Below, piece by piece: positions 8,521 to 24,039 of a stretch of 64,000 bases of DNA; position 1 is the stretch's first letter; every line of letters starts with the position of its first letter. The notes below the pieces were generated by a model, which ran no database searches, was not told where the DNA came from, and saw only the letters and a program-made list of their open reading frames with translations. The DNA comes from Escherichia phage 121Q. The stretch lies in sequence record NC_025447.1; one strand, 5' to 3'. Made by a program: the position numbers and the translations under genes.

Positions 8521-8580
8521 AGTACTGAATTTTGGGCGTAACTATGCACCCGGTGGGCTAGAGTCTTTCTCGACTTGATA
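8521..8580. repeat. ~60-bp direct repeat, copy 1 (partner 8739-8800)
   Basis: agtactgaattttgggcgtaactatgcacccggtgggctagagtctttctcg versus tactgaattttgggcgtaattccgcaccccctggggtatccgctttctcg; both contain a degenerate inverted CCCAC-GGGTGC box. Confidence 0.5.
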
Positions 8581-8738
8581 AAAATATTATAGCAGTACTG
8601 AATTATAAAAGCAATAGCCTGGATGTAAAAAGTTTTAATTAATTTGCTTGTCATCCTGGGGCGTACTATGGTACTATGATTCAGTACTGAGAAAGTGCTA
8701 TGACCTGCTAAGGTGCGGGAGTGTATCCTTTTTAAATT

Positions 8739-8800
8739 TACTGAATTTTGGGCGTAATTCCGCACCCCCTGGGGTATCCGCTTTCTCGCGTCTATGTAGT
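8739..8800. repeat. ~60-bp direct repeat, copy 2
   Basis: See 8521-8580. Confidence 0.5.
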
Positions 8801-10607: not shown

Positions 10608-10683
10608 GGCCCACGGGGTGCGGGAGTGTATCTATAGAAAAAGTAGTTTATTACAGTTACAATTGTGCACCCGGTGGGTTAGC
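10608..10683. repeat. Inverted pair of the 'CCCACNGGGTGC' box (candidate small structured RNA)
   Basis: ggcccacggggtgcgggagtgtatctatag ... tgtgcacccggtgggttagc: ~12-bp imperfect arms around a ~45-nt loop. Confidence 0.45.
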
Positions 10684-10699
10684 TGTTGTCATGGGGTAT

Positions 10700-10728
10700 A
10701 TTATGCCAGTACTTGATAATGCTGTCAA
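10700..10728 (-). promoter_or_regulatory. promoter (leftward) of convergent pair
   Basis: Minus strand reads TTGACA, 17-nt spacer, CATAAT (plus strand attatg...tgtcaa). Confidence 0.5.
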
Positions 10729-11565: not shown

Positions 11566-11623
11566 TTCAGTACTGAATCACTGGCGGGGAATGGTTCCCG
11601 CCTATATCCCAGGAGTAAGAGAA

Positions 11624-11860: not shown

Positions 11861-11867
11861 AAAGTAC

Positions 11868-11895: not shown

Positions 11896-11945
11896 ACTTT
11901 ATATCGAGAGCGGGAATAGTTCCCGCCTTTACTGAGGATTATCTA

Positions 11946-12230
11946 ATGGGTAAAGTAATTAACTATACAGTACTAAGCAAGTCATTATCTATTAGCCAGT
12001 GCACCGATGGTTTTTGGCTGTACGATGAAACGCGTGGCATGAATTTAGCTATGCAGGAGAAAACTACTGATGCGGCATATCTTAAAGCACTGGAATACTA
12101 CCAGAAGCGTTTAAAGGAAGTAGAAAACGATTATAATAACCTGAAAGCGAAAGTAGATCATTTCGTCGGTCAATTCATTGACGATGACGAGGACGGGCAC
12201 TACTGCGACCGTTGCGGATCTTACAATTGA
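11946..12230 (+). CDS. hypothetical protein (94 aa)
   Basis: SD CTGAGGAT; ATG 11946. Confidence 0.65.
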   Translation: MGKVINYTVLSKSLSISQCTDGFWLYDETRGMNLAMQEKTTDAAYLKALEYYQKRLKEVENDYNNLKAKVDHFVGQFIDDDEDGHYCDRCGSYN

Positions 12231-12247
12231 GTACTGAGGATTATCTA

Positions 12248-12451
12248 ATGAGTGATTTAATTAAACGTATCAAAGAGCTTGAAGAAAAAGAATTGCAGTT
12301 GATCGGGTTACGGAATAAAGTATTCCATGATTTAGGTGGCTTCATTAATGCCTGGGATAGTGGCGATCCTGATGCGTTACCTGCTAACCGCCAGGCGATG
12401 ATCAATGATGTGCGTGGTGTCTTTGATTATGTTTTAAAGCAATTAAATTAA
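12248..12451 (+). CDS. hypothetical protein (67 aa)
   Basis: Start trimmed to ATG 12248; duplicated SD context actgaggattatctaatg as at 11946. Confidence 0.6.
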   Translation: MSDLIKRIKELEEKELQLIGLRNKVFHDLGGFINAWDSGDPDALPANRQAMINDVRGVFDYVLKQLN

Positions 12452-12459
12452 AAAAGTAC

Positions 12460-12487
12460 TTGCAATTAGTTTTCAGTACTGTATAAT
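12460..12487 (+). promoter_or_regulatory. early-type promoter with leader hairpin
   Basis: TTGCAA, 16-nt spacer (ttagttttcagtactg), TATAAT; hairpin ~12500-12518. Confidence 0.6.
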
Positions 12488-12537
12488 AGTTTACATCAAG
12501 GGGGAAATGGTTCTCCCCACTAATAAGGAGTTTTACA

Positions 12538-12759
12538 ATGGCTAATATCACTACTCTTTCCCAGCTTGAAGCACTGGTTAAATCTATGCGGGAACATGCC
12601 GACAATATCGGCGTAGAAGATCCGGCTGTATGTTTTTGCGACGAAATAAATGATGATACGCTCGTCATTGCAGAAGTACAAGACGTTTCTAACTATTCAT
12701 CGCGTTACACTGGCGGCGTAGCAAAGAAAGGTGATTTTTGTTTATATCTTACTAAGTAA
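12538..12759 (+). CDS. hypothetical protein (73 aa)
   Basis: SD TAAGGAG; MANITTL... Confidence 0.65.
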   Translation: MANITTLSQLEALVKSMREHADNIGVEDPAVCFCDEINDDTLVIAEVQDVSNYSSRYTGGVAKKGDFCLYLTK

Positions 12760-12766
12760 TAACCAG

Positions 12767-12792
12767 GGGGATCAAACGATCCCCTTTATTTT
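12767..12792 (+). terminator. Rho-independent terminator
   Basis: GGGGATC-AAAC-GATCCCC followed by TTTATTTT. Confidence 0.6.
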
Positions 12793-12818
12793 GCAGTACT
12801 GAATCATTTAATAGACGG

Positions 12819-12850
12819 ATCTATGCACCCTGTGGGTTAGTGACTATCTC
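12819..12850 (-). repeat. 'CCCACAGGGTGCA' box element, minus orientation, downstream of minus-strand promoter
   Basis: Plus strand atctatgcaccctgtgggttagtgactatctc is the reverse complement of the box seen at 16977. Confidence 0.5.
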
Positions 12851-12864
12851 GTCTTTATGTAGGT

Positions 12865-12893
12865 ATTATGCCAGTACTGGATGCAGTTGTCAA
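12865..12893 (-). promoter_or_regulatory. minus-strand promoter driving the box element
   Basis: Minus strand TTGACA, 17-nt spacer, CATAAT; transcript would end at the 12767-12792 hairpin. Confidence 0.5.
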
Positions 12894-12927
12894 GACTTTT
12901 TTTTCAAATACTTTTATATTAAAGTAC

Positions 12928-12955
12928 TTGATAATAGTTTTTAAACGCGTATAAT
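12928..12955 (+). promoter_or_regulatory. early-type promoter
   Basis: TTGATA, 16-nt spacer, TATAAT. Confidence 0.5.
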
Positions 12956-13005
12956 GTTTTACATCTAATCGGGAATACTCCCTAGTACTAACAAAGGATA
13001 TACAA

Positions 13006-13305
13006 ATGAAAACTGCAATCATCGCCCTGGCTTTATCTGTTTCCTCTTTCGCTGTTAACGCTTCCGTTGATGTACAGAAAGAAAAATTCATTCAGTGCAC
13101 TGTTGCAATGACTAACGAGGAAACGGCTGAGATCGTTACCAAATCCCTGGAACTGGCCCCTGCAATGTTTGCTAATGGCCCGTACCATGAAGAAGATGAT
13201 CAGGGTAGCACGACCATCTATTACGATGCAAAAAGTAAACGCGGTTCTGTCACTGTAATGGATACAGAGAAAGTTACATTCACTGGCGTAATTAATTGTT
13301 TATAA
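13006..13305 (+). CDS. small secreted/periplasmic protein (99 aa)
   Basis: N-terminus MKTAIIALALSVSSFAVNA-S resembles a Sec signal peptide; SD AAAGGA. Confidence 0.6.
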   Translation: MKTAIIALALSVSSFAVNASVDVQKEKFIQCTVAMTNEETAEIVTKSLELAPAMFANGPYHEEDDQGSTTIYYDAKSKRGSVTVMDTEKVTFTGVINCL

Positions 13306-13323
13306 TATAGTACTGAATCACTA

Positions 13324-13352
13324 GCCCACTATAAGGAGTGGGCTTTTTTTAT
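13324..13352 (+). terminator. Rho-independent terminator
   Basis: AGCCCACT..AGTGGGCT followed by TTTTTTT. Confidence 0.7.
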
Positions 13353-13401
13353 TGTAGGATTGTAGTACTGGTATACTTTGAAAATAGTTTTAAAAAAGTA
13401 G

Positions 13402-13429
13402 TTGACATTACCAGGGAAAAGCGTAGAAT
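13402..13429 (+). promoter_or_regulatory. early-type promoter
   Basis: TTGACA, 16-nt spacer, TAGAAT. Confidence 0.55.
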
Positions 13430-13543
13430 GTATTACATCAAGACGGGGAACATTAAGTAGACCGCCAGTAAGTCGAATGAAAAACTGGACACGTCAAACA
13501 AACTTTGATAAACTAACTTAAACTTTAATTGAGGATTTATAAA

Positions 13544-14026
13544 ATGGCTAATGTAAAATCATTTCTGAAAGCACTGATTTCTAACGATACTGTCATTGCT
13601 GCTGAATTGCTGGCTGACCTGGATAATGATACCATGAAAGCAGTACGCAACAATTTTAACATTGCTTACAGTGAAGCGAAAGAACTACAAGCCAAAAAGG
13701 TAGCAGAACTGGAAGAACAGAAAAAAGCCCGTGAAGCAGAACTGCAAGCAACAATAGAAAGTATTCAGGCGGCGGTGTCTGGTTTAGATCTGGAAGTGGT
13801 TATTGAAATGGCACATAAAGCCCTGGCGGTTAAGTACGGTGAAGATAAGCCGGAATCTAAGCCTAAAAAATGGATTCAAGAACGTGTTACGGTTGTCCTT
13901 GATAACGGGGAAGAACATTTGATTCCTGTACGCGGTAACTGCATTGCGGTAGTACTGGATGCTATCAAAGAAAGCGGTATGACTCGCGAGGAATGGATCG
14001 AATCTCACCGCAAAATTGAAGCATAA
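13544..14026 (+). CDS. hypothetical protein (160 aa), coiled-coil-rich
   Basis: Start trimmed to ATG 13544 (MANVKSF) after SD GAGGAT. Confidence 0.65.
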   Translation: MANVKSFLKALISNDTVIAAELLADLDNDTMKAVRNNFNIAYSEAKELQAKKVAELEEQKKAREAELQATIESIQAAVSGLDLEVVIEMAHKALAVKYGEDKPESKPKKWIQERVTVVLDNGEEHLIPVRGNCIAVVLDAIKESGMTREEWIESHRKIEA

Positions 14027-14047
14027 CATTTAAAGTACTGAATCACT

Positions 14048-14074
14048 AGCCCACTTATACAGTGGGCTTTTTTG
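14048..14074 (+). terminator. Rho-independent terminator
   Basis: AGCCCACT-TATAC-AGTGGGCT followed by TTTTTTG. Confidence 0.7.
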
Positions 14075-14154
14075 TGTCTATAGTATTCCATGCCGTCAGC
14101 ACCTCATAGAATCGATTCTAACGCATTAAACTGATTATCTGATGCATCGCCCTA

Positions 14155-14162
14155 GCTGGTGG
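14155..14162 (+). other. Chi octamer GCTGGTGG
   Basis: Exact match, intergenic, next to repeated cgttagaatgcgattgag element. Confidence 0.6.
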
Positions 14163-14227
14163 AGTTAAGGCCGTTAGAATGCGATTGAGAGCGTTTAAAG
14201 TATTTTGCAAAAAGTAATAAAAAGTAC

Positions 14228-14255
14228 TTGCACGATTCAGAGATTAGCGTATAAT
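14228..14255 (+). promoter_or_regulatory. early-type promoter
   Basis: TTGCAC, 16-nt spacer, TATAAT. Confidence 0.55.
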
Positions 14256-14300
14256 GTTTTACATCAAGGCGAAACACCTTAACTAACTGAGGATATAAAG

Positions 14301-14453
14301 ATGAATACTTATGAACTGGATTGTTTCACGTTACAAGTAATGTCAGTATGCAGCAAGAAAGATTGGTCATCAAAGGAATTTAAAGCAGTTATTGCGTGTG
14401 CAAAACACGGCAAGACTATCAATGAAACGGCATCAATCATTGATAAACTTTAA
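14301..14453 (+). CDS. hypothetical small protein (50 aa; below ORF-track cutoff)
   Basis: SD CTGAGGAT then ATG 14301; MNTYELDCFTLQVMSV... Confidence 0.5.
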   Translation: MNTYELDCFTLQVMSVCSKKDWSSKEFKAVIACAKHGKTINETASIIDKL

Positions 14454-14461
14454 AAAATAGT

Positions 14462-14489
14462 TTGACAATAGTTTTAAGTACTGTATAAT
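14462..14489 (+). promoter_or_regulatory. early-type promoter
   Basis: TTGACA, 16-nt spacer (atagttttaagtactg), TATAAT. Confidence 0.6.
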
Positions 14490-14522
14490 ATTTTACATCA
14501 ACTACTGAGAAGGATTTAAAAA

Positions 14523-14750
14523 ATGGCTATCATCATCACTTACGTATCTGGCACTACTGGCACTTCTAGCACTGTTGCAGTACTGACCAACAAGAAAGGT
14601 GCGGAACTTCATTCTGCAATGAATACCTGGGCGGTGAATGAGTTCGGTCAGTGGGCTAGTGTAGAATACATTGAAACCTATCAAGTGCCGTCTATTAGCT
14701 TAACTGATTTAGGTGTAGATCGTATCCTTTGCCTGGATGAATTAAACTAA
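14523..14750 (+). CDS. hypothetical protein (75 aa)
   Basis: SD GAGAAGGA; MAIIITYVSG... Confidence 0.65.
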   Translation: MAIIITYVSGTTGTSSTVAVLTNKKGAELHSAMNTWAVNEFGQWASVEYIETYQVPSISLTDLGVDRILCLDELN

Positions 14751-14766
14751 AAAGTACTTGCAAAGT

Positions 14767-14794
14767 AAATCGGATAAAGTATAATACATTACAT
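14767..14794 (+). promoter_or_regulatory. early-type promoter with leader hairpin
   Basis: TTGCAA, 16-nt spacer, TATAAT; hairpin GGGGAGAA-ATGA-TTCTCCCC 14807-14826. Confidence 0.6.
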
Positions 14795-14835
14795 CAAGGG
14801 GAGAAATGATTCTCCCCACTAAGAGGAAACTAAAA

Positions 14836-14979
14836 ATGAAAACTTGTCAATGTGGTAAAAAATCTATCACTGGTTTGAAACGGGGCGTTGCTCTTTGTCA
14901 GTATCACTATAACGCTCAAGTATGGGGTAAAGAGTGGGCAGACCAGGTGGAAGCTGTAAAGAAAGCAAAAAGTAAGTAA
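14836..14979 (+). CDS. small Cys-containing protein (47 aa; possible zinc ribbon)
   Basis: SD AAGAGGAAA then ATG 14836; MKTCQCGKKSITGLKRGVALCQYHY; the ORF-track minus-strand ORF 14830-15039 is judged antisense noise. Confidence 0.5.
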   Translation: MKTCQCGKKSITGLKRGVALCQYHYNAQVWGKEWADQVEAVKKAKSK

Positions 14980-14998
14980 AATTATTATCACAGTACTA

Positions 14999-15027
14999 TT
15001 GACATAGTTTGATAGTACTGGCATAAT
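14999..15027 (+). promoter_or_regulatory. early-type promoter (variant 2)
   Basis: TTGACA, 17-nt spacer (tagtttgatagtactgg), CATAAT. Confidence 0.55.
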
Positions 15028-15060
15028 AGATTTTATCAAGACAACTAAGAGGAAACAATA

Positions 15061-15273
15061 ATGGCTATCATTACTAAAATCAAAGTTAACAAATCACTGG
15101 TTAAACTTGAACAAGTGAAAGCAGGTTATAAAGTATCGTGGTGCGGTATGTATCGGATGTTCACCGATATAGACAATGCAATCAAGTACTACACTGACAC
15201 CGTTGCCTCATTCGTTCGTTCTGATGTAGTACTGGCAGTACATGCACATAAAGCAGCGAAAGAAAGTAAGTAA
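15061..15273 (+). CDS. hypothetical protein (70 aa)
   Basis: SD TAAGAGGAAA; MAIITKIKVN. Confidence 0.65.
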   Translation: MAIITKIKVNKSLVKLEQVKAGYKVSWCGMYRMFTDIDNAIKYYTDTVASFVRSDVVLAVHAHKAAKESK

Positions 15274-15292
15274 AAATATTATCACAGTACTA

Positions 15293-15321
15293 TTGATATA
15301 GTTTGATAGTACTGGCATAAT
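15293..15321 (+). promoter_or_regulatory. early-type promoter (variant 2)
   Basis: TTGATA, 17-nt spacer, CATAAT. Confidence 0.5.
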
Positions 15322-15364
15322 AGATTTTATCAAGACAACACATATTAATTTAAGGAATACTAAA

Positions 15365-15688
15365 ATGGCTAAAACTATCATCAACACCGTTTCCCTGGCT
15401 GCAATCCGTGCAATCAATGTTGACGGTAAACGTTGGACTGATTCATATGGCAATACTTATCATTCTTGTCATGTAAGCGTCGAACTGGATAACGGTTTGA
15501 ATGATCTGGCGGTTGAATCATTTACTTATGGCTATGAAGATGCATATCAACAAACGGCGTTATCTCTCTTAAAGGAATCAGTAGACGGGCTTAATACTGA
15601 TGAAACCTCCCTTACTCGTTTGTGCAATGATCTTAATATCCCGTTGCATTGTACTGTACAGAATGTTAAACGCAAAAAAGATCTTTAA
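15365..15688 (+). CDS. hypothetical protein; paralog of 21575-21898
   Basis: Shared core RWTDSYGNTYHSCHVS...FTYGY...VKRKKD with the 21575 protein. Confidence 0.7.
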   Translation: MAKTIINTVSLAAIRAINVDGKRWTDSYGNTYHSCHVSVELDNGLNDLAVESFTYGYEDAYQQTALSLLKESVDGLNTDETSLTRLCNDLNIPLHCTVQNVKRKKDL

Positions 15689-15768
15689 TTAGCTTTACTT
15701 TATGCAGATACTTTTATATAGTGTCTGCATAGGGGAAAGAAATTAAATTAACTTAAGAGGATCGTATA

Positions 15769-16038
15769 ATGAAAAATATCAGTACTTTAATCGATGCAGG
15801 TACACATGTTCGTCGGTCAATGGTTGCAACCAGTACTACAAAACAAGTAGCAAGCGGTTATCTTGTATTTGTACACGAAGGAAAGCTATTGGAACGTTCA
15901 ATCAATTTTGATGTTAAAAACAATTGCCGTTTTATTATTTTTAAGCGTGAACAATATAAAATTGATTTGCCAGCAAAGCCCATAAGCGGGGCGTACAACG
16001 TGCAATCATTGTTTGAGCGTCAACCATACACCTATTAA
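15769..16038 (+). CDS. hypothetical protein (89 aa)
   Basis: SD AAGAGGAT; ATG 15769. Confidence 0.6.
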   Translation: MKNISTLIDAGTHVRRSMVATSTTKQVASGYLVFVHEGKLLERSINFDVKNNCRFIIFKREQYKIDLPAKPISGAYNVQSLFERQPYTY

Positions 16039-16089
16039 TCAAAACATCGTTAGCGGTCGATTTAGGCCGCTTATATTGGGGATTATACC

Positions 16090-16260
16090 ATGAACGTTAA
16101 TCAAGTACTGAATGAAGTTGAAAGCATCATTAAACCAATGAAACGTATTGATGCTGTTCCTACACCGGAAGAATGCCGCCTTTATGAGCGTTACAGTGTG
16201 GAACAAGCCCAGGAAATGGCCCGTATCCGTCCGGTTGCCAGTACTGATAAGGCGGCGTAA
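16090..16260 (+). CDS. hypothetical small protein (56 aa)
   Basis: ATG 16090 after GGGGATTA; stop abuts next start. Confidence 0.45.
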   Translation: MNVNQVLNEVESIIKPMKRIDAVPTPEECRLYERYSVEQAQEMARIRPVASTDKAA

Positions 16261-16261
16261 T

Positions 16262-16471
16262 ATGCTTACTGTACAGGATAAGATCGACATCTTAAAGGTT
16301 AATATGTATGTGATTGATGCAGATCCTGAAAAAGTATTTGCATACGATGATTCTAATCGTAGTCCTTTTTATTGTAGTCATGTAGTTGGATACGTGCCGT
16401 TAGGGTATGTTATCGAAAGAGTGGTTGATGAAGCATACAAACATTTTTTAGAAAATAATACTTGCAATTAG
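16262..16471 (+). CDS. hypothetical protein (69 aa)
   Basis: Start trimmed from 16148 to ATG 16262 (MLTVQDKIDIL), directly after the stop of the upstream ORF. Confidence 0.5.
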   Translation: MLTVQDKIDILKVNMYVIDADPEKVFAYDDSNRSPFYCSHVVGYVPLGYVIERVVDEAYKHFLENNTCN

Positions 16472-16489
16472 TTTTCAGTACTGTATAAT
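16462..16489 (+). promoter_or_regulatory. early-type promoter with leader hairpin
   Basis: TTGCAA, 16-nt spacer, TATAAT; hairpin GGGGGGAATGGTTCTCCCC 16502-16520. Confidence 0.6.
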
Positions 16490-16538
16490 TGTTTACATAG
16501 AGGGGGGAATGGTTCTCCCCGATACTAGGAGAATCAAA

Positions 16539-16691
16539 ATGAAACAATACAACGCTCGGTTTGATGTTACTATCGGCAACGGCAAAGGTCAATTTTCTTT
16601 CAGTACTCGTAGGAGTTATACAGAAAACTTCCTGCGTAATTGTGCACTGACCGCCGCACAAATTAAACATTACTTTCAGGCTAAAAAATGA
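16539..16691 (+). CDS. hypothetical small protein (50 aa)
   Basis: Start trimmed to ATG 16539 after SD TAGGAGAA. Confidence 0.6.
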   Translation: MKQYNARFDVTIGNGKGQFSFSTRRSYTENFLRNCALTAAQIKHYFQAKK

Positions 16692-16777
16692 AATCATTGG
16701 CTTATTACAGTTCGGCCCTGGTCGGTGCATTGATCGCGGCATTGTTAGTAACTTATCTATTCTTTATGGTGATTTAA
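16688..16777 (+). CDS. 29-aa hydrophobic peptide (single predicted TM helix)
   Basis: ATGA overlap with upstream stop; MKSLAYYSSALVGALIAALLVTYLFFMVI. Confidence 0.4.
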   Translation: MKSLAYYSSALVGALIAALLVTYLFFMVI

Positions 16778-16915
16778 ATGAATCCTAACGGTTTAATTTA
16801 CAGTACTCCTAAAACGAAAGCAGATAAAGCGAAAGCACGTAAAGCGAAAGTAAAGCAGTACATCAAGCAAGGCATGACACGCAAAGCGGCATTGCTTAAA
16901 GCTAAAAATAAATGA
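16778..16915 (+). CDS. 45-aa lysine-rich basic peptide
   Basis: TAAATG junction with upstream peptide; MNPNGLIYSTPKTKADKAKARKAKVKQYIKQG... Confidence 0.4.
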   Translation: MNPNGLIYSTPKTKADKAKARKAKVKQYIKQGMTRKAALLKAKNK

Positions 16916-16924
16916 AAAAAGTGG

Positions 16925-16953
16925 TTGACTTCGGTCAGCCATTTTGCTATTAT
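16925..16953 (+). promoter_or_regulatory. promoter with embedded inverted repeat, driving the box element
   Basis: TTGACT, 17-nt spacer (tcggtcagccattttgc), TATTAT. Confidence 0.5.
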
Positions 16954-16976
16954 ATATTCATTGAGAGATAGCTCAC

Positions 16977-17007
16977 TAGCCCACAGGGTGCAGGAGTGTA
17001 TCTATTG
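16977..17007 (+). repeat. 'CCCACAGGGTGCA...GTATCTAT' box element
   Basis: tagcccacagggtgcaggagtgtatctattg; family also at 10608, 12819(-), 18658, 20666, 23969, 25888. Confidence 0.55.
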
Positions 17008-17057
17008 TATAATGATTGAGTACTGAAAACTATTTTAAAGTATTTGATAAAAAGTAC

Positions 17058-17085
17058 TTGCAAACTATCTCAATGAGCGTATAAT
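17058..17085 (+). promoter_or_regulatory. early-type promoter with leader hairpin
   Basis: TTGCAA, 16-nt spacer, TATAAT; hairpin GGAAACGGTTTCC ~17102-17114. Confidence 0.6.
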
Positions 17086-17138
17086 GTTTTATATCGCAAG
17101 GGGAAACGGTTTCCTCTCCAAATAAAAGGAATACCAAA

Positions 17139-17477
17139 ATGATCTCTATCGCTCAATCTAACTTTGAAAACGAAATCATCGCTCAGGCACTGCGTTTAAA
17201 TGATGGTCGGGCCGAAATCAATTACGGTTTCAATAGTGGTGGATGTGAAAAATATCAGTACTTTGTAACGGCTGATGGCTGTGTCCTGGGTATCAATACA
17301 GTTATTGTAAACATTCAGAAAATTAATTTCAATGATCCAGACGATAGCCAGTTTTACATCACGGGCGTAGACGTGAACTATGAGGATGACTCACTAACTG
17401 ATGATCACACTGGCGAGAAGTTAGAAAGTGCATACGGTGAAGATGATTATCAGTCAGTACCAGAAGATTTTGAATAA
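17139..17477 (+). CDS. hypothetical acidic protein (112 aa)
   Basis: SD AAAAGGAAT; ATG 17139. Confidence 0.65.
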   Translation: MISIAQSNFENEIIAQALRLNDGRAEINYGFNSGGCEKYQYFVTADGCVLGINTVIVNIQKINFNDPDDSQFYITGVDVNYEDDSLTDDHTGEKLESAYGEDDYQSVPEDFE

Positions 17478-17491
17478 TATTAAAAAATAGT

Positions 17492-17519
17492 TTGACAATA
17501 GTTTTTAGTACTGTATAAT
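17492..17519 (+). promoter_or_regulatory. early-type promoter with leader hairpin
   Basis: TTGACA, 16-nt spacer, TATAAT; hairpin GGGGAGAATAGTTCTCCCC 17532-17550. Confidence 0.65.
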
Positions 17520-17572
17520 TAATTACATCAAGGGGAGAATAGTTCTCCCCACTAACAGAGAGAGAAAACAAA

Positions 17573-17785
17573 ATGGCTAATATCCGCACTGTACTGAAAA
17601 ATGCAAAACAAGTTTTATTTTCTGATCATGAAAATTTCAACAAGGATATCACTGGCGTTCGGAATATCAAAGATGTAAAAAATGTTATGGGTATCTATTG
17701 CAATATGAAACGTGTTGGCACGTTCGGCGATAAAGTACTATACCAGGCAGGGGATTACAATTTTACACTGACTATCATTAACTAA
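17573..17785 (+). CDS. hypothetical protein (70 aa)
   Basis: SD AGAGAGAGAAAA; MANIRTVLKN. Confidence 0.65.
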   Translation: MANIRTVLKNAKQVLFSDHENFNKDITGVRNIKDVKNVMGIYCNMKRVGTFGDKVLYQAGDYNFTLTIIN

Positions 17786-17804
17786 AAATATTATCACAGT
17801 ACTA

Positions 17805-17833
17805 TTGACAACGTTTGATAGTACTGGCATAAT
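17805..17833 (+). promoter_or_regulatory. early-type promoter (variant 2)
   Basis: TTGACA, 17-nt spacer, CATAAT. Confidence 0.55.
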
Positions 17834-17876
17834 AACTTTTATCAAGACAACGCATATTAATTTAAGGAATACTAAA

Positions 17877-18056
17877 ATGGCTATTATCGCAAAAACTGAA
17901 ATCATCGGCCTGGATTCTATCATCATGACGTTTGAAGATCAAAAAGGGATGTATGTAGTTTCCTATGGTGATTATGTTCGGGAGTATGAAACAGTAGACG
18001 AAGCCTTTGAAAGTTACATTCGCCAGGTTAATAAAGCATACGACGATTACCGCTAA
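17877..18056 (+). CDS. hypothetical protein (59 aa)
   Basis: Start trimmed from 17805 (which lies in the promoter) to ATG 17877 after SD TAAGGAAT; MAIIAKTEII. Confidence 0.6.
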   Translation: MAIIAKTEIIGLDSIIMTFEDQKGMYVVSYGDYVREYETVDEAFESYIRQVNKAYDDYR

Positions 18057-18083
18057 AATATATTACCAGTACTATTAAATCTA

Positions 18084-18111
18084 TTGACAATGTTTGATAG
18101 TACTGTATAAT
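18084..18111 (+). promoter_or_regulatory. early-type promoter
   Basis: TTGACA, 16-nt spacer, TATAAT. Confidence 0.55.
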
Positions 18112-18155
18112 AAGTTTTATAAACAGTAGTTAACTTAACCTAAGAGAGAAAAATC

Positions 18156-18299
18156 ATGACAGCATTAGATTCATTCATCGACGCAGTACTGGCAAAAACT
18201 GGCGAGGATCTGACCGCAGAACAATACGCGATGATCGAACAATGTCAGCAAGACGGTAAATCGGTGAAAGATACTGTTAAGATTATCCGCAAGATGTAA
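18156..18299 (+). CDS. hypothetical small protein (47 aa)
   Basis: SD TAAGAGAGAAAAA then ATG 18156; MTALDSFIDAVLAKTGEDL...; followed by terminator. Confidence 0.5.
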   Translation: MTALDSFIDAVLAKTGEDLTAEQYAMIEQCQQDGKSVKDTVKIIRKM

Positions 18300-18305
18300 G
18301 ATTAT

Positions 18306-18337
18306 AGCCCACTGGTTAACGCTGGTGGGCTTTAATC
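18306..18337 (+). terminator. terminator-like hairpin containing a Chi octamer
   Basis: AGCCCAC..GTGGGCT stem, then TTTAATC (weak U-tract). Confidence 0.45.
18321..18328 (+). other. Chi octamer GCTGGTGG
   Basis: Exact match inside hairpin loop/arm. Confidence 0.6.
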
Positions 18338-18404
18338 ATTTACCCTATACAATGCCAGTACTAAACCGTTTAACTCGTTAGAATGCGTTACAGGACGTTT
18401 AACA

Positions 18405-18602
18405 ATGATTAGCATGAAATCAGTACAAAAACAAATAGAAACATTATCAAAAATTAAACGTAAACAGTACTCATTAGAATATACAATCAATGGTAACTAT
18501 CATCTAATGAAAGAAAATAATTTTATAGTCATTGATGAATCATTGCAGATCATTAGTATAGTACTGAAAGCATTAATCAATGACAGAAAAAAGTTAAAAT
18601 AA
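18405..18602 (+). CDS. hypothetical protein (65 aa), uncertain
   Basis: ORF without convincing SD; preceded by repeated cgttagaatgcg element. Confidence 0.3.
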   Translation: MISMKSVQKQIETLSKIKRKQYSLEYTINGNYHLMKENNFIVIDESLQIISIVLKALINDRKKLK

Positions 18603-18606
18603 TCTA

Positions 18607-18635
18607 TTGACAATATTATCCAGTACTGGCATAAT
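18607..18635 (+). promoter_or_regulatory. early-type promoter (variant 2) in front of a ~290-nt leader
   Basis: TTGACA, 17-nt spacer, CATAAT; leader holds box element and GATC cluster. Confidence 0.5.
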
Positions 18636-18657
18636 ACTTACATCAAGACGAGAACGT

Positions 18658-18691
18658 CACTAACCCATAGGGTGCACAAATGTAACTATAT
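18658..18691 (+). repeat. 'CCCATAGGGTGCA' box element
   Basis: cactaacccatagggtgcacaaatgtaactatat. Confidence 0.5.
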
Positions 18692-18697
18692 AATATC

Positions 18698-18768
18698 GAT
18701 CAATAAATGATCAAAAAAGTACTGGATCAATTTAGCATAAGGCGTATAATTCTGATCAAATCTTGATC
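18698..18768. repeat. Cluster of five GATCAA repeats (Dam-type GATC sites)
   Basis: cgatcaat, tgatcaaa, ggatcaat, tgatcaaa, tgatcaaa within ~70 bp. Confidence 0.5.
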
Positions 18769-18931
18769 AAAGGCAATAAACGTAGTTGAAATTATATAGA
18801 AAGTACAAAGGCGTTACCATTCGTGGTAATGCTGGGGAATATGTAGTATCATACGGTTTGAATAAAATCAGTACTAGTAGTATTATTGTAGCATTACAGT
18901 ACTATAGTATTTTTATAATGAGGTTAAAATA

Positions 18932-19189
18932 ATGGCTGTTGGATTCGCGAAGGACGGGGCCGAGCAAGACGAGATTAACGCAGTGATTCAGGCCGCTGTA
19001 AACCACGCTAGAACGCAAATTAACGCACAAATAGAATCACTGATACATTGCCTCGACTGCGGCGATAAAATCCCTGAGAATCGCCGCCTGGCCGTTAAGG
19101 GGTGTAAGTACTGCATCACTTGCCAGGCTGATCATGATAGCATATTCAAACGCAATCCCCGTAATTGTTGGCATAGATCTATGAGATAA
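18932..19189 (+). CDS. TraR/DksA-family C4 zinc-finger protein (candidate RNA-polymerase-binding modulator)
   Basis: CLDCGDKIPENRRLAVKGCKYCITCQ matches the C-x2-C-x17-C-x2-C spacing and the CxxCGxxIPExRR...C..CQ pattern of TraR/DksA zinc fingers; SD TGAGGT. Confidence 0.55.
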   Translation: MAVGFAKDGAEQDEINAVIQAAVNHARTQINAQIESLIHCLDCGDKIPENRRLAVKGCKYCITCQADHDSIFKRNPRNCWHRSMR

Positions 19190-19195
19190 AAAGTA

Positions 19196-19223
19196 TTGAC
19201 AGTACTGTTAGTTAGTGTATAAT
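19196..19223 (+). promoter_or_regulatory. early-type promoter
   Basis: TTGACA, 16-nt spacer, TATAAT. Confidence 0.55.
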
Positions 19224-19252
19224 ATTTTATATCTTAACTGAGGATTGAAATC

Positions 19253-19609
19253 ATGGGTATACAACATATCACGCGTACTACAGACAATGGTGAGATCACT
19301 GGCTATCAAGTACAAGGCAAAGTAGCACAATTGCAGTACTGGTTTGTTAAACGTGGCATTGTTGCACCGGATCTTGATTATGATCGTGTAGCGTTTATTG
19401 ATTCTCTTTATGTTGATCCCGATAATCGCGGTAACGGTGAAGGTACTGAGTTAATGAATGCCTTTATTGATGCCGCCGATGATTCAGATTGTATCATCTT
19501 AGAATGCGATACTGGAGAAGATAACGAGTTTAATCTTAAAGAATGGTATGAAGGTTTTGGATTTGAAGTACTGATTAACTGCGAATATCCTATAATGATT
19601 TTATCCTAG
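19253..19609 (+). CDS. possible GNAT-family N-acetyltransferase (118 aa)
   Basis: LYVDPDNRGNGEGTELMNAF resembles GNAT motif A (R-G-x-G-x-G); SD CTGAGGAT. Confidence 0.4.
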   Translation: MGIQHITRTTDNGEITGYQVQGKVAQLQYWFVKRGIVAPDLDYDRVAFIDSLYVDPDNRGNGEGTELMNAFIDAADDSDCIILECDTGEDNEFNLKEWYEGFGFEVLINCEYPIMILS

Positions 19610-19611
19610 TA

Positions 19612-19639
19612 CTTGCAATTAGTTTTAAGTACTGTATAA
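19612..19639 (+). promoter_or_regulatory. early-type promoter with leader hairpin
   Basis: TTGCAA, 16-nt spacer, TATAAT; hairpin 19652-19670. Confidence 0.65.
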
Positions 19640-19688
19640 TAGTTTACATGAAGGGGAGAATAGTTCTCCCCACTACAAGGAAAGACAA

Positions 19689-19877
19689 ATGCAAAACTTA
19701 TCAAGTATTTTAGTACAAGATGATTTCGGTAATCCTGGAAGTGCTATCATCGTTCGGGGCAATAAGGCAACGTTTGTTATTGCTGGTGGACCTGTACAGC
19801 GTAGCATTAAAAACAATGCAGTTACAATCAATAATGTTCGCTATCGCTTAGATAAAGAATTGATTCATAAACTTTAA
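19689..19877 (+). CDS. hypothetical protein (62 aa)
   Basis: SD AAGGAAAGA; ATG 19689. Confidence 0.6.
   Translation: MQNLSSILVQDDFGNPGSAIIVRGNKATFVIAGGPVQRSIKNNAVTINNVRYRLDKELIHKL
19782..19789 (+). other. Chi octamer GCTGGTGG (inside CDS)
   Basis: Exact match, codes IAGG. Confidence 0.55.
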
Positions 19878-19885
19878 AAAAGTAT

Positions 19886-19913
19886 TTGACAAAGCATTGT
19901 AGTACTGTATAAT
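19886..19913 (+). promoter_or_regulatory. early-type promoter with leader hairpin
   Basis: TTGACA, 16-nt spacer, TATAAT; hairpin 19926-19945. Confidence 0.65.
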
Positions 19914-19962
19914 AGTTTACATGAAGGGGAGAAATGATTCTCCCCACTAAGAGGAAAGAAAC

Positions 19963-20175
19963 ATGCAAGGTCAACTAATCGTTCGTAAATGGTCTGATAC
20001 TAACGAAAAACCGTGGGATGTTCAATATATCGGACCGGACGGTGTTTCACGTTATCAACCTGGCGTAACGCATAGTACTGAGCAATATGCCGCCGCTCAC
20101 CGCGAACGCCTGTTAGAATCTATGAAACAGGGATTCTGTGAAAAATTCATTCAAGATCATTGGCTGAAAGATTAA
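19963..20175 (+). CDS. hypothetical protein (70 aa)
   Basis: SD AAGAGGAAAGAA; ATG 19963. Confidence 0.65.
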   Translation: MQGQLIVRKWSDTNEKPWDVQYIGPDGVSRYQPGVTHSTEQYAAAHRERLLESMKQGFCEKFIQDHWLKD

Positions 20176-20194
20176 TATATAAGGAGTACAGCTT

Positions 20195-20287
20195 ATGCAA
20201 ATGAATCCGATGATTGTTGTGTTAGCTGTACTTATGATCATTCATGCCATCGTAGAAGTACTAACACAATCAGGAGTAATACAATGA
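20195..20287 (+). CDS. 30-aa hydrophobic peptide
   Basis: SD AAGGAG then ATG 20195; MQMNPMIVVLAVLMIIHAIVEVL...; ATGA overlap with next ORF. Confidence 0.4.
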   Translation: MQMNPMIVVLAVLMIIHAIVEVLTQSGVIQ

Positions 20288-20454
20288 TCCAAGTAGAATT
20301 ATCAGTACTGAAAGATCTGTTTTATCGGTTAGGCACTACTGGCGAATACCCTAAAGGGGATACTGCTAAACTATACATTGCATTGGATGTATGGCAACGT
20401 AATGAACTGGCTAACGCCTGGCGTAAAGGTAAATCAGAGGGGATTGCAGCATGA
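20284..20454 (+). CDS. hypothetical small protein (56 aa)
   Basis: Coupled start; MIQVELSVLKDLFYRLG... Confidence 0.4.
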   Translation: MIQVELSVLKDLFYRLGTTGEYPKGDTAKLYIALDVWQRNELANAWRKGKSEGIAA

Positions 20455-20600
20455 AAGAATTTTTATTCGAAGTAGTGTTCCAGGGCGTAGGAAGTAACCA
20501 ACTGATTCGATCAAGTGGTTACAATGTTAACCAGGCATGGAATAACATTAAACAAATGTACCCGAACGCTATCACATATCGCAACCCAAAACAAGTTTAA
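20451..20600 (+). CDS. hypothetical small protein (49 aa)
   Basis: ATGA coupling; MKEFLFEVVFQGVGSNQLIRS... Confidence 0.4.
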   Translation: MKEFLFEVVFQGVGSNQLIRSSGYNVNQAWNNIKQMYPNAITYRNPKQV

Positions 20601-20618
20601 AAAGAATAAAAAAAGGGA

Positions 20619-20647
20619 TTGACTCCGGTCAGTCCCTTTGCTATTAT
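20619..20647 (+). promoter_or_regulatory. promoter with embedded inverted repeat, driving box element
   Basis: TTGACT, 17-nt spacer (ccggtcagtccctttgc), TATTAT. Confidence 0.5.
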
Positions 20648-20665
20648 ATACGCATAGACAAAAAC

Positions 20666-20696
20666 TAGCCCACAGGGTGCATAAATGTATCTATTA
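20666..20696 (+). repeat. 'CCCACAGGGTGCA' box element
   Basis: tagcccacagggtgcataaatgtatctattat. Confidence 0.55.
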
Positions 20697-20699
20697 TAT

Positions 20700-20707
20700 G
20701 CTGGTGG
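20700..20707 (+). other. Chi octamer GCTGGTGG
   Basis: Exact match, intergenic, directly 3' of box element. Confidence 0.6.
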
Positions 20708-20747
20708 CTAGTACTATCAAGTACTGAAAACTATTTTTAAAAAGTAC

Positions 20748-20775
20748 TTGCATTGTACTTAGAATCAAGTATAAT
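20748..20775 (+). promoter_or_regulatory. early-type promoter (first of tandem pair)
   Basis: TTGCAT, 16-nt spacer, TATAAT; followed by conserved ~85-nt leader. Confidence 0.55.
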
Positions 20776-20862
20776 GTTTTACATCAGGACGGGGAACGAA
20801 ACAAGTAACCCCGTTAAGTAGTCCAGGAGTAAGACATACGAAAACCTCCCCTGATAAAATAG

Positions 20863-20890
20863 TTTGACAATAGAAATTAAACAAGTATAA
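20863..20890 (+). promoter_or_regulatory. early-type promoter (second of tandem pair)
   Basis: TTGACA, 16-nt spacer, TATAAT. Confidence 0.55.
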
Positions 20891-20921
20891 TACTTACATC
20901 AACCACAAAGAGGAATACAAA

Positions 20922-21122
20922 ATGAAACATTTTACTTTCGGTGTAGTAGGCTTTACAGTATCCAGCGGCGTTTATAAATCAGAACGCGGTGCTAAAAATG
21001 CAGCAAGTCGGGCGTATGGTTCACAGCGTGACTTACAGGTCGGTTATATTAGTAACATTAATAACATGTTTATTCCTGTTTCACAGCGTAAAGCGGGTAA
21101 CATGAAATGGGAAACAATTTGA
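20922..21122 (+). CDS. hypothetical protein (66 aa)
   Basis: SD AAGAGGAAT; ATG 20922. Confidence 0.65.
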   Translation: MKHFTFGVVGFTVSSGVYKSERGAKNAASRAYGSQRDLQVGYISNINNMFIPVSQRKAGNMKWETI

Positions 21123-21131
21123 TAAAATAGT

Positions 21132-21159
21132 TTGACAATAGTTTTTAGTACTGTATAAT
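21132..21159 (+). promoter_or_regulatory. early-type promoter with leader hairpin
   Basis: TTGACA, 16-nt spacer, TATAAT; hairpin GTGGGGAATAGTTCCCCAC 21173-21190. Confidence 0.65.
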
Positions 21160-21211
21160 ATTTTACATCAAGTGGGGAATAGTTCCCCACCTAACAAAGA
21201 GAGAAATTAAA

Positions 21212-21487
21212 ATGCGGATTCTACTGACAGCTAACGAAATCGAGCAAGTACTGACTACTAACCTGGAAGACTGGAAACGTGATGCAGATATCCAGGCGGT
21301 GCAATGGCTCAATGATAAGTTAACGCCGGATGATTTAAGTAAGATTGTAGATCCACAATTCTATGAAGATATTCACGACACGGCTTTAAGCGTCGAGGAT
21401 GTACTTGATAAGCACTACATTGATATTGATTTGCAGGTTTACGGTCGTAAAAACTTTATCACTATTCACGACATTTATAATAATTAA
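21212..21487 (+). CDS. hypothetical protein (91 aa)
   Basis: SD AAAGAGAGAAA; ATG 21212. Confidence 0.65.
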   Translation: MRILLTANEIEQVLTTNLEDWKRDADIQAVQWLNDKLTPDDLSKIVDPQFYEDIHDTALSVEDVLDKHYIDIDLQVYGRKNFITIHDIYNN

Positions 21488-21489
21488 GT

Positions 21490-21517
21490 ATTGACAAAGT
21501 ATCTTAGTACTGTATAA
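21490..21517 (+). promoter_or_regulatory. early-type promoter with leader hairpin
   Basis: TTGACA, 16-nt spacer, TATAAT; hairpin AGGGGAATGGTTCCCCT 21534-21550. Confidence 0.65.
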
Positions 21518-21574
21518 TAGTTTACATCAAGGCAGGGGAATGGTTCCCCTCCTAACTAAAAGAGAGAAATTAAA

Positions 21575-21898
21575 ATGACTATGATCCTTACCCAGAAAGT
21601 AGAAATGAAAATTGTAACTTCCTTTGACATTAAAGTCAATCGGTGGACTGATAGCCACGGCAATACTTACCACTCATGCTACGTGTCTGCATTGATTGGT
21701 GACCGCTGGGAAGACCTGGGACATGAAACCTTTACTTACGGTTACGGTACACAAGGCGAATACACGGGCTTGGAGATCATTAAAGAAACTGTAATAGGTT
21801 TCAACCCGAAAGAGAAAGTACTACACAGAATTGAGGATGAGATCAACAAAGAAATTACAGTTCGTTACTACGATGTAAAACGTAAGAAAGATATGTAA
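21575..21898 (+). CDS. hypothetical protein; paralog of 15365-15688
   Basis: Shared core NRWTDSHGNTYHSCYVS...FTYGY...VKRKKD. Confidence 0.7.
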   Translation: MTMILTQKVEMKIVTSFDIKVNRWTDSHGNTYHSCYVSALIGDRWEDLGHETFTYGYGTQGEYTGLEIIKETVIGFNPKEKVLHRIEDEINKEITVRYYDVKRKKDM

Positions 21899-21920
21899 TA
21901 GAATCCATTTAAAGTACTAT

Positions 21921-21949
21921 TTGACATTGCCCAGATAGTACTTTATAAT
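21921..21949 (+). promoter_or_regulatory. early-type promoter
   Basis: TTGACA, 17-nt spacer, TATAAT. Confidence 0.55.
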
Positions 21950-21997
21950 AGACTCTAACTTGTAGTACTAATTAACTTAACTAATAGGATGTACACC

Positions 21998-23916: not shown

Positions 23917-23945
23917 TTGACTCCAGTCAGTCCCTTTGCTATTAT
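23917..23945 (+). promoter_or_regulatory. promoter with embedded inverted repeat, driving box element
   Basis: TTGACT, 17-nt spacer, TATTAT. Confidence 0.5.
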
Positions 23946-23968
23946 ATATTCATTGAGAGATAACTCAC

Positions 23969-24000
23969 TGACCCATAGGGTGCGGAAGTGTATCTATTAT
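23969..24000 (+). repeat. 'CCCATAGGGTGCG' box element
   Basis: tgacccatagggtgcggaagtgtatctattat. Confidence 0.55.
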
Positions 24001-24039
24001 ATAAGTATTCAGTACTGAAAACTATTTTATAAAAAGTAC

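Follow-up and report, generated by a model that had tools for sequence, protein, structure and literature searches.

We analyzed a repeated box, together with the RNA leader that would carry it, in 64,000 nucleotides of Escherichia phage 121Q (NC_025447.1; this whole stretch is called the window below). Several described systems come close to it. In lambdoid nut sites, boxA, a CGCTCTTTA-like consensus, stands beside a boxB hairpin with a 5-nt GNRA-like loop; put is about 70 nt long, and neither nut nor put is known to have a bistable core. The loops of ANTAR sites have A at position 1 and G at position 4. T4-type phages carry promoter-early stem-loop (PeSL) cassettes (Arbiol et al. 2010, PMC2839356; Comeau et al. 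2014, PMC4122927), in one subclass of which the stem-loop overlaps the −35 (PMC2839356; PMC4122927). Abundant short RNAs arise from the 5′ untranslated regions (5′UTRs) of phiKZ-type phages by premature termination (Putzeys et al. 2024, PMC10914365), and PA5oct has abundant terminal-repeat noncoding RNAs (Lood et al. 2020, PMC7318152).

Set beside these, the leader RNA of 121Q would represent a new family within a known general type (structured 5′ leaders or small RNAs derived from 5′ ends), and its promoter-terminator part looks PeSL-like. What sets it apart is that each genome has 5 to 10 copies, that three strands make up its bistable core, and that orphan and convergent copies are frequent. 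Comparison of the copies shows a predicted structure of the transcribed strand that is under purifying selection, tied to immediate-early sigma70 promoters, multicopy, and specific to one phage group. The box core is very probably a functional structured RNA element. Our best explanation as a whole, which we regard as close to an even call, is that these immediate-early leaders or small RNAs form a new family and act at the RNA level.

The box and its three helices

We searched the window with the box pattern CCCACNGGGTGC, allowing at most one mismatch, and used shuffled sequences as a control (n = 100). There were 10 matches compared with 0.15 expected, and none of the 100 shuffles attained 10. 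The core of the box is CCCAYNGGGTGC, and GTATCTAT or a variant of it is located 6 nt 3′ of the box. Six copies are on the plus strand (10610, 16980, 18664, 20669, 23972, and 25891) and four on the minus strand (8546, 8762, 10667, and 12825). An earlier reading of this DNA, made from the sequence only, had counted at least seven copies, and the repeat it described is real: the boxes it listed were all recovered, two that it took for degenerate (8536 and 8755) are in fact full minus-strand copies (8546 and 8762), and the one at 10667(−) had been overlooked. It had also placed the boxes always between genes, which holds for all ten in the annotations of the related phages G17 and CRJP21; 4 of the 10 are directed against every gene annotated in G17. 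A covariance model was built from 11 equal-length copies, and the window and 15 related loci were scanned with it. In the window, at an E value of ≤1, it returned exactly the ten known boxes and no further match; in total it gave 76 hits, 59 of them distinct, altered boxes included.

The features of the focal copy, whose box starts at 16980, are as follows.

16918..16945, plus strand: terminator-like 12-bp hairpin AAAGTGGTTGACTTCGGTCAGCCATTTT, which includes the −35 of P1 (terminator scan)
16925..16953, plus strand: promoter P1, TTGACT, 17-nt spacer, TG-n-TATTAT (extended −10)
16962..16975, plus strand: helix H1, TGAG / loop AGATAG / CTCA (comparative pairing test)
16979..16989, plus strand: helix H2, the "box" hairpin, G-CCC / ACA / GGG-U (pair conservation)
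16986..17003, plus strand: helix H3, GGGTGCA / loop GGAG / TGTATCT (register, letter, and haplotype tests)

H3 pairs GGGUGC-R with Y-GUAUCU over a 4-nt loop. GTATCTAT, taken for a second box by the sequence-only reading, is on this prediction the 3′ arm of the hairpin formed with the GGGUGC half and no separate box. In the alignment, 89.6% of the H3 cells were paired, compared with 28 to 57% when the partner was slid by 1 to 3 columns. The 3′ arm has T or C opposite G in column 70, A or G opposite U in column 71, T or C in column 72 (6 exceptions), C or T in column 73, and T or C in column 74 (2 exceptions); the columns of the H3 loop and tail use all four bases. When 31 haplotypes were counted once each, 40 changes in the 3′ arm preserved the pair and 5 broke it (binomial P value = 4 × 10−8, assuming that half of changes preserve pairing; paralogous copies are not independent samples, and P values are indicative only). 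Furthermore, the otherwise invariant C62 of GGGUGC was altered in three copies (to G, G, and U), and its partner matched in all three (C, C, and G). The 3′ arm of H3 tolerates G-U pairs, a tolerance expected of single-stranded RNA and not of duplex DNA.

These patterns bear on a DNA-level role for the box, as a repressor operator, as part of a promoter read by a phage sigma factor or activator, or as a recombination homology patch of a PeSL-like cassette. Such a role would suit the near invariance of the box sequence, the promoter cassettes that form indel boundaries relative to G17 (as with a 318-bp insertion at the 18607 promoter), and the existence of PeSL cassettes with a stem-loop over the −35 in T4-type phages (PMC2839356; PMC4122927). 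It does not account for H1 stems that vary and stay complementary or for U or C opposite G and A or G opposite U in H3, which are a signature of RNA pairing; moreover, the box is not a palindrome, and its orientation relative to the promoter is strict in every aligned copy. We consider a DNA-level element very improbable.

H2 is a 4-bp hairpin, RCCC-AYN-GGGU, and almost every copy keeps its three C-G pairs unchanged. GGG is changed to AGG in two copies only (L012:7796 and L013:4516), both of which have CCC changed to CCT (C-G to U-A). Across 59 copies, the closing pair is G-U in 31, A-U in 23, and something else in 5. H2 and H3 share GGGU and are therefore mutually exclusive. Folding energies are about −3.6 to −3.9 kcal/mol for H2 and about −5.5 to −6.7 kcal/mol for H3 of the main class, with values of up to −10 for the ACGCCC variant; in 42 of 59 copies, H3 exceeds H2 in stability. 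The two G-to-A copies satisfy both helices, with U-A in H2 and A-U in H3. Folding of single sequences chose H2 in some copies and H3 in others. The most divergent copies (278-6450 of Yersinia phage fHe-Yen9-04, locus L013, and 7796 of L012) have 4-nt H2 loops (CCCUAGAGGG and CCCUAUAGGG), CCU/AGG stems, or GGGUUC or GGUGU boxes and would be useful as natural structure variants.

Two other pairings were tried and rejected. For GTATCTAT and the 5′ leader, the best complementary stretch averaged 4.66 nt compared with 4.71 in shuffled leaders, and GGGUGC is the real partner. For a fourth helix, between the ACUAR linker and a downstream (U/C)AGUACUG, the value was 3.44 compared with 3.35 in permuted sequences (P value = 0.02), a tiny difference that comes from the conserved ACU/AGU.

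H1 was scored in a fixed register, with its 3′ half ending 4 to 5 nt ahead of CCC, a loop of 5 to 9 nt, and a stem of at least 3 bp. Such a stem was present in 24 of 35 unique leaders; with the 5′ and 3′ halves swapped between sequences, the mean was 10.6 and the maximum 17 (2,000 permutations). At least 13 distinct stems occur, among them TGAG/CTCA, GAC/GTC, AGTC/GACT, CGC/GCG, TGGC/GCCG, AGCA/TGCT, ACCAC/GTGGT, ACCG/CGGT, and AGACA/TGTCT. On the model alignment, both-side changes were seen in 4 of 4 pairs and 85% of cells were paired, with the pair counts of H1 and H2 inflated because that alignment was fitted to them; H3 lies outside the model and is free of this bias. H1 is a covarying hairpin of 3 to 5 bp with purine-rich loops of 6 to 8 nt (AGAUAA, GAGAAA, and AGAACAA), and a conserved ACUAR linker stands between it and the box core. 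The remaining 11 of the 35 leaders form a short class, 5 nt shorter, with only an A-rich stretch that is sometimes bounded by UAG...CUA. Covariance analysis of the copies, named in the sequence-only reading as a check, supports H1, H2, and H3 in the transcribed strand.

Ordinary early genes of the phage share a stereotyped 5′UTR: behind TATAAT-gttttaCAUCAAG stand a GC-rich GGGGAGAAUAGUUCUCCCC-type hairpin, ACUAA, a ribosome-binding site, and AUG. Their transcripts begin CAUCAAG and continue into the hairpin, the stems of which vary between genes; sites include 9566-9600, 10243-10275, 12488-12520, 14786-14820, 17086-17115, 17520-17550, 19641-19670, 19914-19945, 21160-21190, and 24376-24405. This 5′UTR is a second, predicted conserved early leader architecture. 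Because ordinary early genes start alike, H1 is probably a generic 5′ hairpin of early transcripts and the box core the special part.

The same observation raises the question of a 5′ stability or processing determinant, which would protect the transcript from host nucleases or mark it for a phage nuclease with no switch involved. The element is always at the 5′ end, and H1 resembles a generic 5′ stabilizer, given that ordinary early genes also begin with CAUCAAG, a hairpin, and ACUAA before the ribosome-binding site. A stabilizer, however, needs neither the invariant CCCAYNGGGUGC nor a second competing helix conserved across genera, and orphan copies would have nothing to stabilize. We regard this reading as improbable; like the DNA-level site, it is less likely than readings in which the RNA is a product or controls elongation.

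Promoters, window copies, and distribution

Upstream of each of the ten window copies is a co-oriented sigma70-like promoter, its spacer 16 or 17 nt long and its −10 in most cases extended by TG; the box starts 22 to 29 nt past this −10. Across an alignment of 48 copies, TTGAC and TAnnnT were kept in 48 of 48 and the promoter orientation was strict throughout. The common layout is TTGAC(A/T), a 17-nt spacer, TAT(A/T)AT, about 6 nt, CAT, a purine-rich segment, CTAR, CCCAYNGGGTGC, R-N4-Y, GTATCT, and AT, with an A-tract upstream of the promoter in all copies. From the distance to the −10, we infer that the focal transcript starts at A16960 of CAT.

In 4 of the 10 promoters (16925, 20619, 23917, and 25841), the −35 lies within a 12-bp terminator-like hairpin; the other six have no terminator-like hairpin over the −35. 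The sequence-only reading had assigned a promoter with an inverted repeat, about 25 nt upstream, to four copies; a promoter is present at all ten. The orthologous hairpins in G17 are annotated ARNold terminators, each immediately 5′ of a box. The inverted repeat within the promoter is better read as a predicted terminator for upstream genes that belongs to a PeSL-like cassette and lies outside the RNA. These hairpins and the other box leaders of the window are listed below.

20612-20639, 23910-23937, and 25834-25861, plus strand: terminator-like hairpins equivalent to 16918..16945 (terminator scan)
23945..24001, plus strand: box leader; P1 23917-23945, box 23972; covariance-model hit of 69.8 bits
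20647..20698, plus strand: box leader of the short class, without a separate H1; P1 20619-20647, box 20669; 46.3 bits
25869..25920, plus strand: box leader of the short class; P1 25841-25869, box 25891; 31.5 bits
18637..18693, plus strand: box leader; P1 18607-18635 with CAGTACTG in the spacer, box 18664; 59.9 bits
10588..10639, plus strand: box leader, plus partner of a convergent pair; P1 10556-10584, box 10610
10649..10702, minus strand: box leader, minus partner of the convergent pair; P1 10728-10700, box 10678-10667
12807..12863, minus strand: box leader opposing the genes; P1 12893-12865, box 12836-12825; 63.9 bits
8528..8584, minus strand: box leader in a gene-free region of about 1.3 kb; P1 8614-8586; 58.2 bits
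8744..8800, minus strand: box leader; P1 8829-8802; 52.2 bits

By indel mapping, the leader at 18637..18693 sits inside a 318-bp segment missing from G17. The 10667(−) box has no co-oriented gene downstream in the G17 annotation. The leader at 8528..8584(−) has the variant ACGCCC as its 3′ arm, and behind the leader at 8744..8800(−) is a decayed, convergent plus-strand box remnant at about 8700. Both lie in 7833-9077 (~1.3 kb), a region without a credible open reading frame (ORF), the counterpart of which in G17 has none annotated; it holds leftward promoters at 8829, 8614, and 8488, two leftward box leaders, and many CAGTACTG sites, and it may be a boundary or origin-like region.

An alternative or MotA-type promoter element was tried as an identity for the box and rejected, with TAnnnT at any fixed offset in at most 33% of 48 copies. 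No fixed −10 follows the box, and it is therefore not an alternative promoter.

Several further observations concern the promoters themselves. GTATCT(AT/CG) stands directly 3′ of the −10, in the discriminator/start region, at four promoters (10585-10592, 22736-22743, 26021-26026, and 26338-26343); the one at 10585 is a second GUAUCU 5′ of the same GGGUGC and could pair with it too. The 8-bp palindrome CAGTACTG has 61 sites in the window compared with 0.78 expected (e.g., 7796, 8593, 10570, 12872, 18621, 24010, and 26006). AGTACT occurs at two fixed spots of early promoters, directly 5′ of the −35 (AGTACTTGCAA) or of the −10 (AGTACTGTATAAT), the latter placement providing the TG of the extended −10; further occurrences are 6 to 20 nt past the majority of box leaders and in the late portion of the window. 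The CAGTACTG/AGTACT motif resembles a target of a DNA-binding regulator that acts genome-wide, or else a subelement of promoters. Indels between the window phage and G17 start or stop at promoter cassettes (18603/18921, 19221/19628, and 19877; also L001 14136-15024), and the 318-bp insertion begins at the 18607 box promoter. Cassette-bounded indels of this kind fit PeSL-type modular shuffling as a candidate explanation.

We next consider where the box occurs. The closest relatives of the window (megablast with 16000-22000; 64 phage records) are Asteriusvirus jumbo coliphages at about 90% identity, with the best matches in CRJP21, CMSTMSU, slurp01, PBECO4, and G17. The part from 8 to 28 kb is a dense array of small genes, nearly each with its own consensus sigma70 promoter, and in several relatives the equivalent of the box region is at the genome end or inside an annotated direct terminal repeat. 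The exact pattern (box + N6 + GTATCT) was found at 13 loci in IMG/VR, all on contigs of 346 to 378 kb; on one IMG/VR contig the boxes match those of the window letter for letter. A BLAST search with the 51-nt leader matched only jumbo phages of Escherichia, Klebsiella, Salmonella, Pectobacterium, and Erwinia, and the matches lay on no annotated feature, on a terminal repeat, or on a hypothetical protein that is probably spurious. Box copies as a whole span phages of Escherichia, Klebsiella, Salmonella, Cronobacter, Pectobacterium, Yersinia, and Erwinia. A search of related phage genomes, also proposed in the sequence-only reading, thus found the box across the RaK2-like jumbo phages of Enterobacterales (121Q, RaK2, GAP32, CBB, Yersinia fHe-Yen9-04, and others), to which it is confined, at 5 to 10 copies per genome.

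A search of 5,426 E. coli genomes gave no match to the box, and one of 100,044 cellular genomes gave 18 scattered single hits compared with about 35 by chance, as estimated from the size of the collection and the 17-base pattern; these hits scored at most 24.7 bits with the covariance model, compared with 30 to 70 bits for true copies. The 39-kb terminal repeat of PA5oct, a more distant relative, is free of the box. No Rfam 15 family reached its gathering threshold anywhere in the window, and a known Rfam family was rejected after an E-value scan of 8400-26100 gave four weak chance hits, none of them on a box. There is no tRNA or transfer-messenger RNA in the window, and the box has no relation to either. 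We found no mention of the motif in the papers on CBB, on RaK2, or on jumbo-phage comparison, nor of its string in any relevant paper.

Downstream context and possible roles

We classified the downstream context of 48 copies across phages. In about 20 of them (~40%), a second sigma70 promoter stands at +49 to +87 with its own 5′UTR and gene. Window examples are the copies at 16980, followed by P2 at 17058, and at 23972, followed by P2 at 24040.

17058..17085, plus strand: promoter P2, TTGCAA-16-TATAAT, with its own 5′UTR hairpin and gene 17139-17477

At these two copies, the 13 nt that open the leader, CAUUGAGAGAUAG, have their complement, CUAUCUCAAUG, in the P2 spacer (16957-16974 with 17065-17077 and 23949-23966 with 24047-24059; 9 + 4 bp with a 2-nt bulge). 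The P1 transcripts of 16980 and 23972 could thereby wrap the whole box in a long-range helix. This complementarity was not seen in box copies other than these two.

About 11 of the 48 copies (~25%) have a terminator hairpin that starts exactly 51 nt past the box start, a spacing found in 121Q, RaK2, CBB, GAP32, Yen9-04, and two metagenomic relatives; loci with it include L014, L015, and L006. In RaK2, the tail of this terminator in the box direction is U-rich (UUUUUCUUU or UUUGUUUUAU), and a U-rich tail in that direction is likewise found in L014 and L015.

12765..12786, no strand assigned: terminator hairpin, starting 51 nt past the start of the 12825(−) box and also ending convergent plus-strand genes

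Both this hairpin and the minus-strand promoter at 12893-12865 exist as the sequence-only reading had described them, with the correction that the T-run of the hairpin is on the plus strand in the window; in relatives the hairpin is bidirectional. A box with its terminator at +51 is a unit of about 100 nt without an ORF, and full units of 101 to 102 nt had folding z-scores of −2.5 and −3.1. Twelve of the 48 copies (~25%) are in convergent pairs with tails 10 to 45 nt apart (window, 10610/10667(−); CBB, 12504/12626(−); Yen9-04, 278/419(−) and 3281/3404(−); L014, 6030/6160(−)). About half of all copies have no co-oriented gene downstream.

Two plus-strand terminators of the window, 13323-13344 and 14048-14068, have the stem AGCCCAC...GTGGGCT preceded by T, and the 5′ arm of both (TAGCCCAC) repeats, letter for letter, the linker together with the box's first half. 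There may be an evolutionary link between the box and the terminator stem.

The claim that the box is transcribed as a short RNA can accordingly be divided. Use at the RNA level is supported by three helices with covariation or wobble and by a fixed promoter orientation and distance. A short RNA is indicated by sequence for the quarter or so with a terminator at +51 and for the convergent pairs, and not for the ~40% that run into a promoter and gene; a promoter of its own plus an intrinsic terminator, about 100 nt and no ORF, would by sequence describe about 11 of the 48 copies and not the ~20 with a promoter and gene.

In the mechanism that we propose, host sigma70 RNA polymerase would start transcripts from strong immediate-early promoters located in the early region or the terminal repeat, and a structured RNA of about 45 to 50 nt would form at the extreme 5′ end, consisting of H1, the ACUAR linker, and the bistable core, in which GGGU may pair upstream with CCC (H2) or downstream with YGUAUCU (H3). 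Promoter and leader would make up an autonomous module with the RNA as its product, a reading that we base on the half of copies that serve no gene and the quarter that carry a fixed-distance terminator. Where there is a terminator at +51, or in tail-to-tail pairs, the leader would be released as a noncoding RNA of about 50 to 100 nt; elsewhere it would stay attached, as a 5′ tag, to longer early RNAs. Very early in infection, the core, in one of its two folds, would be recognized by a conserved factor of phage or host, making the RNA a decoy, a tag, or a switch. That the RNA is itself the product (small RNA or decoy-like), rather than purely a cis-acting control of elongation, is a substantial possibility that we place somewhat below even.

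Some of the same features would also suit cis-acting control of elongation, by a nut/put-type antitermination tag or a promoter-proximal attenuator. Here the nascent RNA, with or without a phage or host factor, would alter the polymerase or decide between read-through and an early stop and so would set how far immediate-early transcripts reach through module-end terminators or into antisense. The fixed position right after the start site points this way, as do the mutually exclusive hairpins, a hallmark of attenuators. H1 with its purine-rich loop, followed by a conserved linear box, resembles the boxB/boxA layout of lambda nut; however, the copies contain no boxA consensus, and among the genes annotated in the early regions of the listed relatives, in a search that was not exhaustive, none is of the N, Q, or NusG type. 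Four window copies head gene modules just past terminators, and the constant +51 terminator (11 copies) is what an antitermination signal would act on; set against this, most modules have no internal terminator, each downstream gene has its own consensus promoter, and about half of the copies are orphans with no co-oriented gene downstream. GAP32 and CBB each have one copy in which H3 is followed by UUUUU, and a YG step with G at −10 inside H3 matches the consensus pause. As a rule, though, H3 is no canonical terminator: a run of at least 4 T follows in 4 of 48 copies (mean, 3.1 T in 8 nt), and ARNold made no H3 call in G17. We consider elongation control unlikely.

H3 as a canonical intrinsic terminator was a separate candidate and was rejected, as 44 of 48 copies have no U-tract. 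The tail consensus past H3 is AU(A/U)AUA.

The reading that we prefer, a new immediate-early leader or small RNA family acting at the RNA level, also has points that weigh against it. The compensatory support for H2 amounts to two independent events only, and the short class (11 of 35 leaders) has no H1 stem in the tested register. On the model-fitted alignment, RNAalifold gave H2 only, because gaps from differing loop lengths lose H1 and H3 competes with H2. Short leaders by themselves folded no better than shuffles (z of about −1.1). The ~40% of copies that run without a terminator into a promoter and gene fit a cis-acting leader equally well. In the window, the antisense of the single-stranded linker plus box half occurs at four extra sites only, two of them inside terminator stems, and the window search identified no target or partner for the box RNA. 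In addition, the start site, length, and abundance of the RNA are all inferred.

A more specific version of this RNA-level reading, which we hold to be quite doubtful, makes the box RNA a multicopy immediate-early effector, expressed in the first minutes from the first-entering terminal-repeat DNA and gated in its activity by the H2/H3 switch. By analogy with put, it may take the form of a protein-independent RNA that reprograms host RNA polymerase; alternatively, it may act as a decoy and titrate either an RNA-binding protein conserved in enterobacteria or an RNA-sensing defense factor.

RaK2-like jumbo phages (121Q, PBECO4, RaK2, GAP32, CBB, and others) are frequent isolates and are considered for therapy. 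Their early program is essentially uncharacterized, we found no published transcriptome, and hundreds of their small early genes have no known function. A conserved, bistable, multicopy RNA that directly follows the strongest early promoters offers a concrete way into this program. If it is an RNA decoy or a polymerase-modifying leader, it adds an RNA-based layer to host takeover in T4-related phages; if the effector reading is true, it is a new class of takeover or antidefense RNA common to the whole jumbo-phage group. Even if it is only a 5′ tag, the covariance model annotates immediate-early transcription units across the phage group, where box copies are at present unannotated or under spurious "hypothetical protein" calls.

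Comparison with known systems

The lambdoid nut and HK022 put sites are, like the box, promoter-proximal early RNA signals with more than one copy per genome, made of small hairpins and conserved sequence and followed by terminators. The linear part of the box, ACUAR-CCCAYNGGGUGC, does not have the boxA/boxB composition of nut: there is no boxA consensus, and the H1 loops are of 6 to 8 nt rather than a GNRA-like pentaloop. Compared with put, the box element is shorter (~45 compared with ~70 nt) and has a bistable core. Unlike both, it is present in 5 to 10 copies, many of them without a gene downstream, and no antiterminator gene was identified; the early-region annotations of relatives contain only hypothetical proteins, an acetyltransferase, and a DksA-like zinc-finger protein, with no dedicated search for an N-type gene.

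Attenuator and riboswitch platforms (the RAT-terminator of BglG/SacY and ANTAR sites) also have two tandem small leader hairpins, the second of which competes for a shared strand with a downstream hairpin. Of the features of an intrinsic-terminator attenuator, the box leaders have the exclusive hairpins (H2/H3) and lack a direct U-tract. In contrast to these platforms, H3 is usually without a U-tract and many copies regulate no gene; moreover, the H1 loops do not match the ANTAR loop pattern.

The short RNAs of phiKZ-type phages and PA5oct resemble the predicted box RNA in being short and noncoding, in having a 5′ end common with longer early transcripts, and in coming from early or terminal-repeat regions. 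They were found by RNA sequencing at single loci with no common motif, whereas the box family is a multicopy motif known here from sequence alone, and the terminal repeat of PA5oct has no box.

The PeSL cassettes, finally, share with the box cassette a strong sigma70-type early promoter, A-rich sequence upstream, and, at 4 of the 10 window copies, a fused GC-rich stem-loop that would terminate upstream transcription. In one PeSL subclass the stem-loop lies over the −35, as it does here at 16918-16945. Cassettes of both kinds are repeated many times in regions of small ORFans and mark the boundaries of indels that distinguish close relatives. PeSLs, however, are DNA-level units that lack a conserved leader in the transcript, whereas the conservation of the box lies downstream of the start, in H1 and H2/H3, and the box also stands behind promoters without a stem-loop (6 of the 10 window copies).

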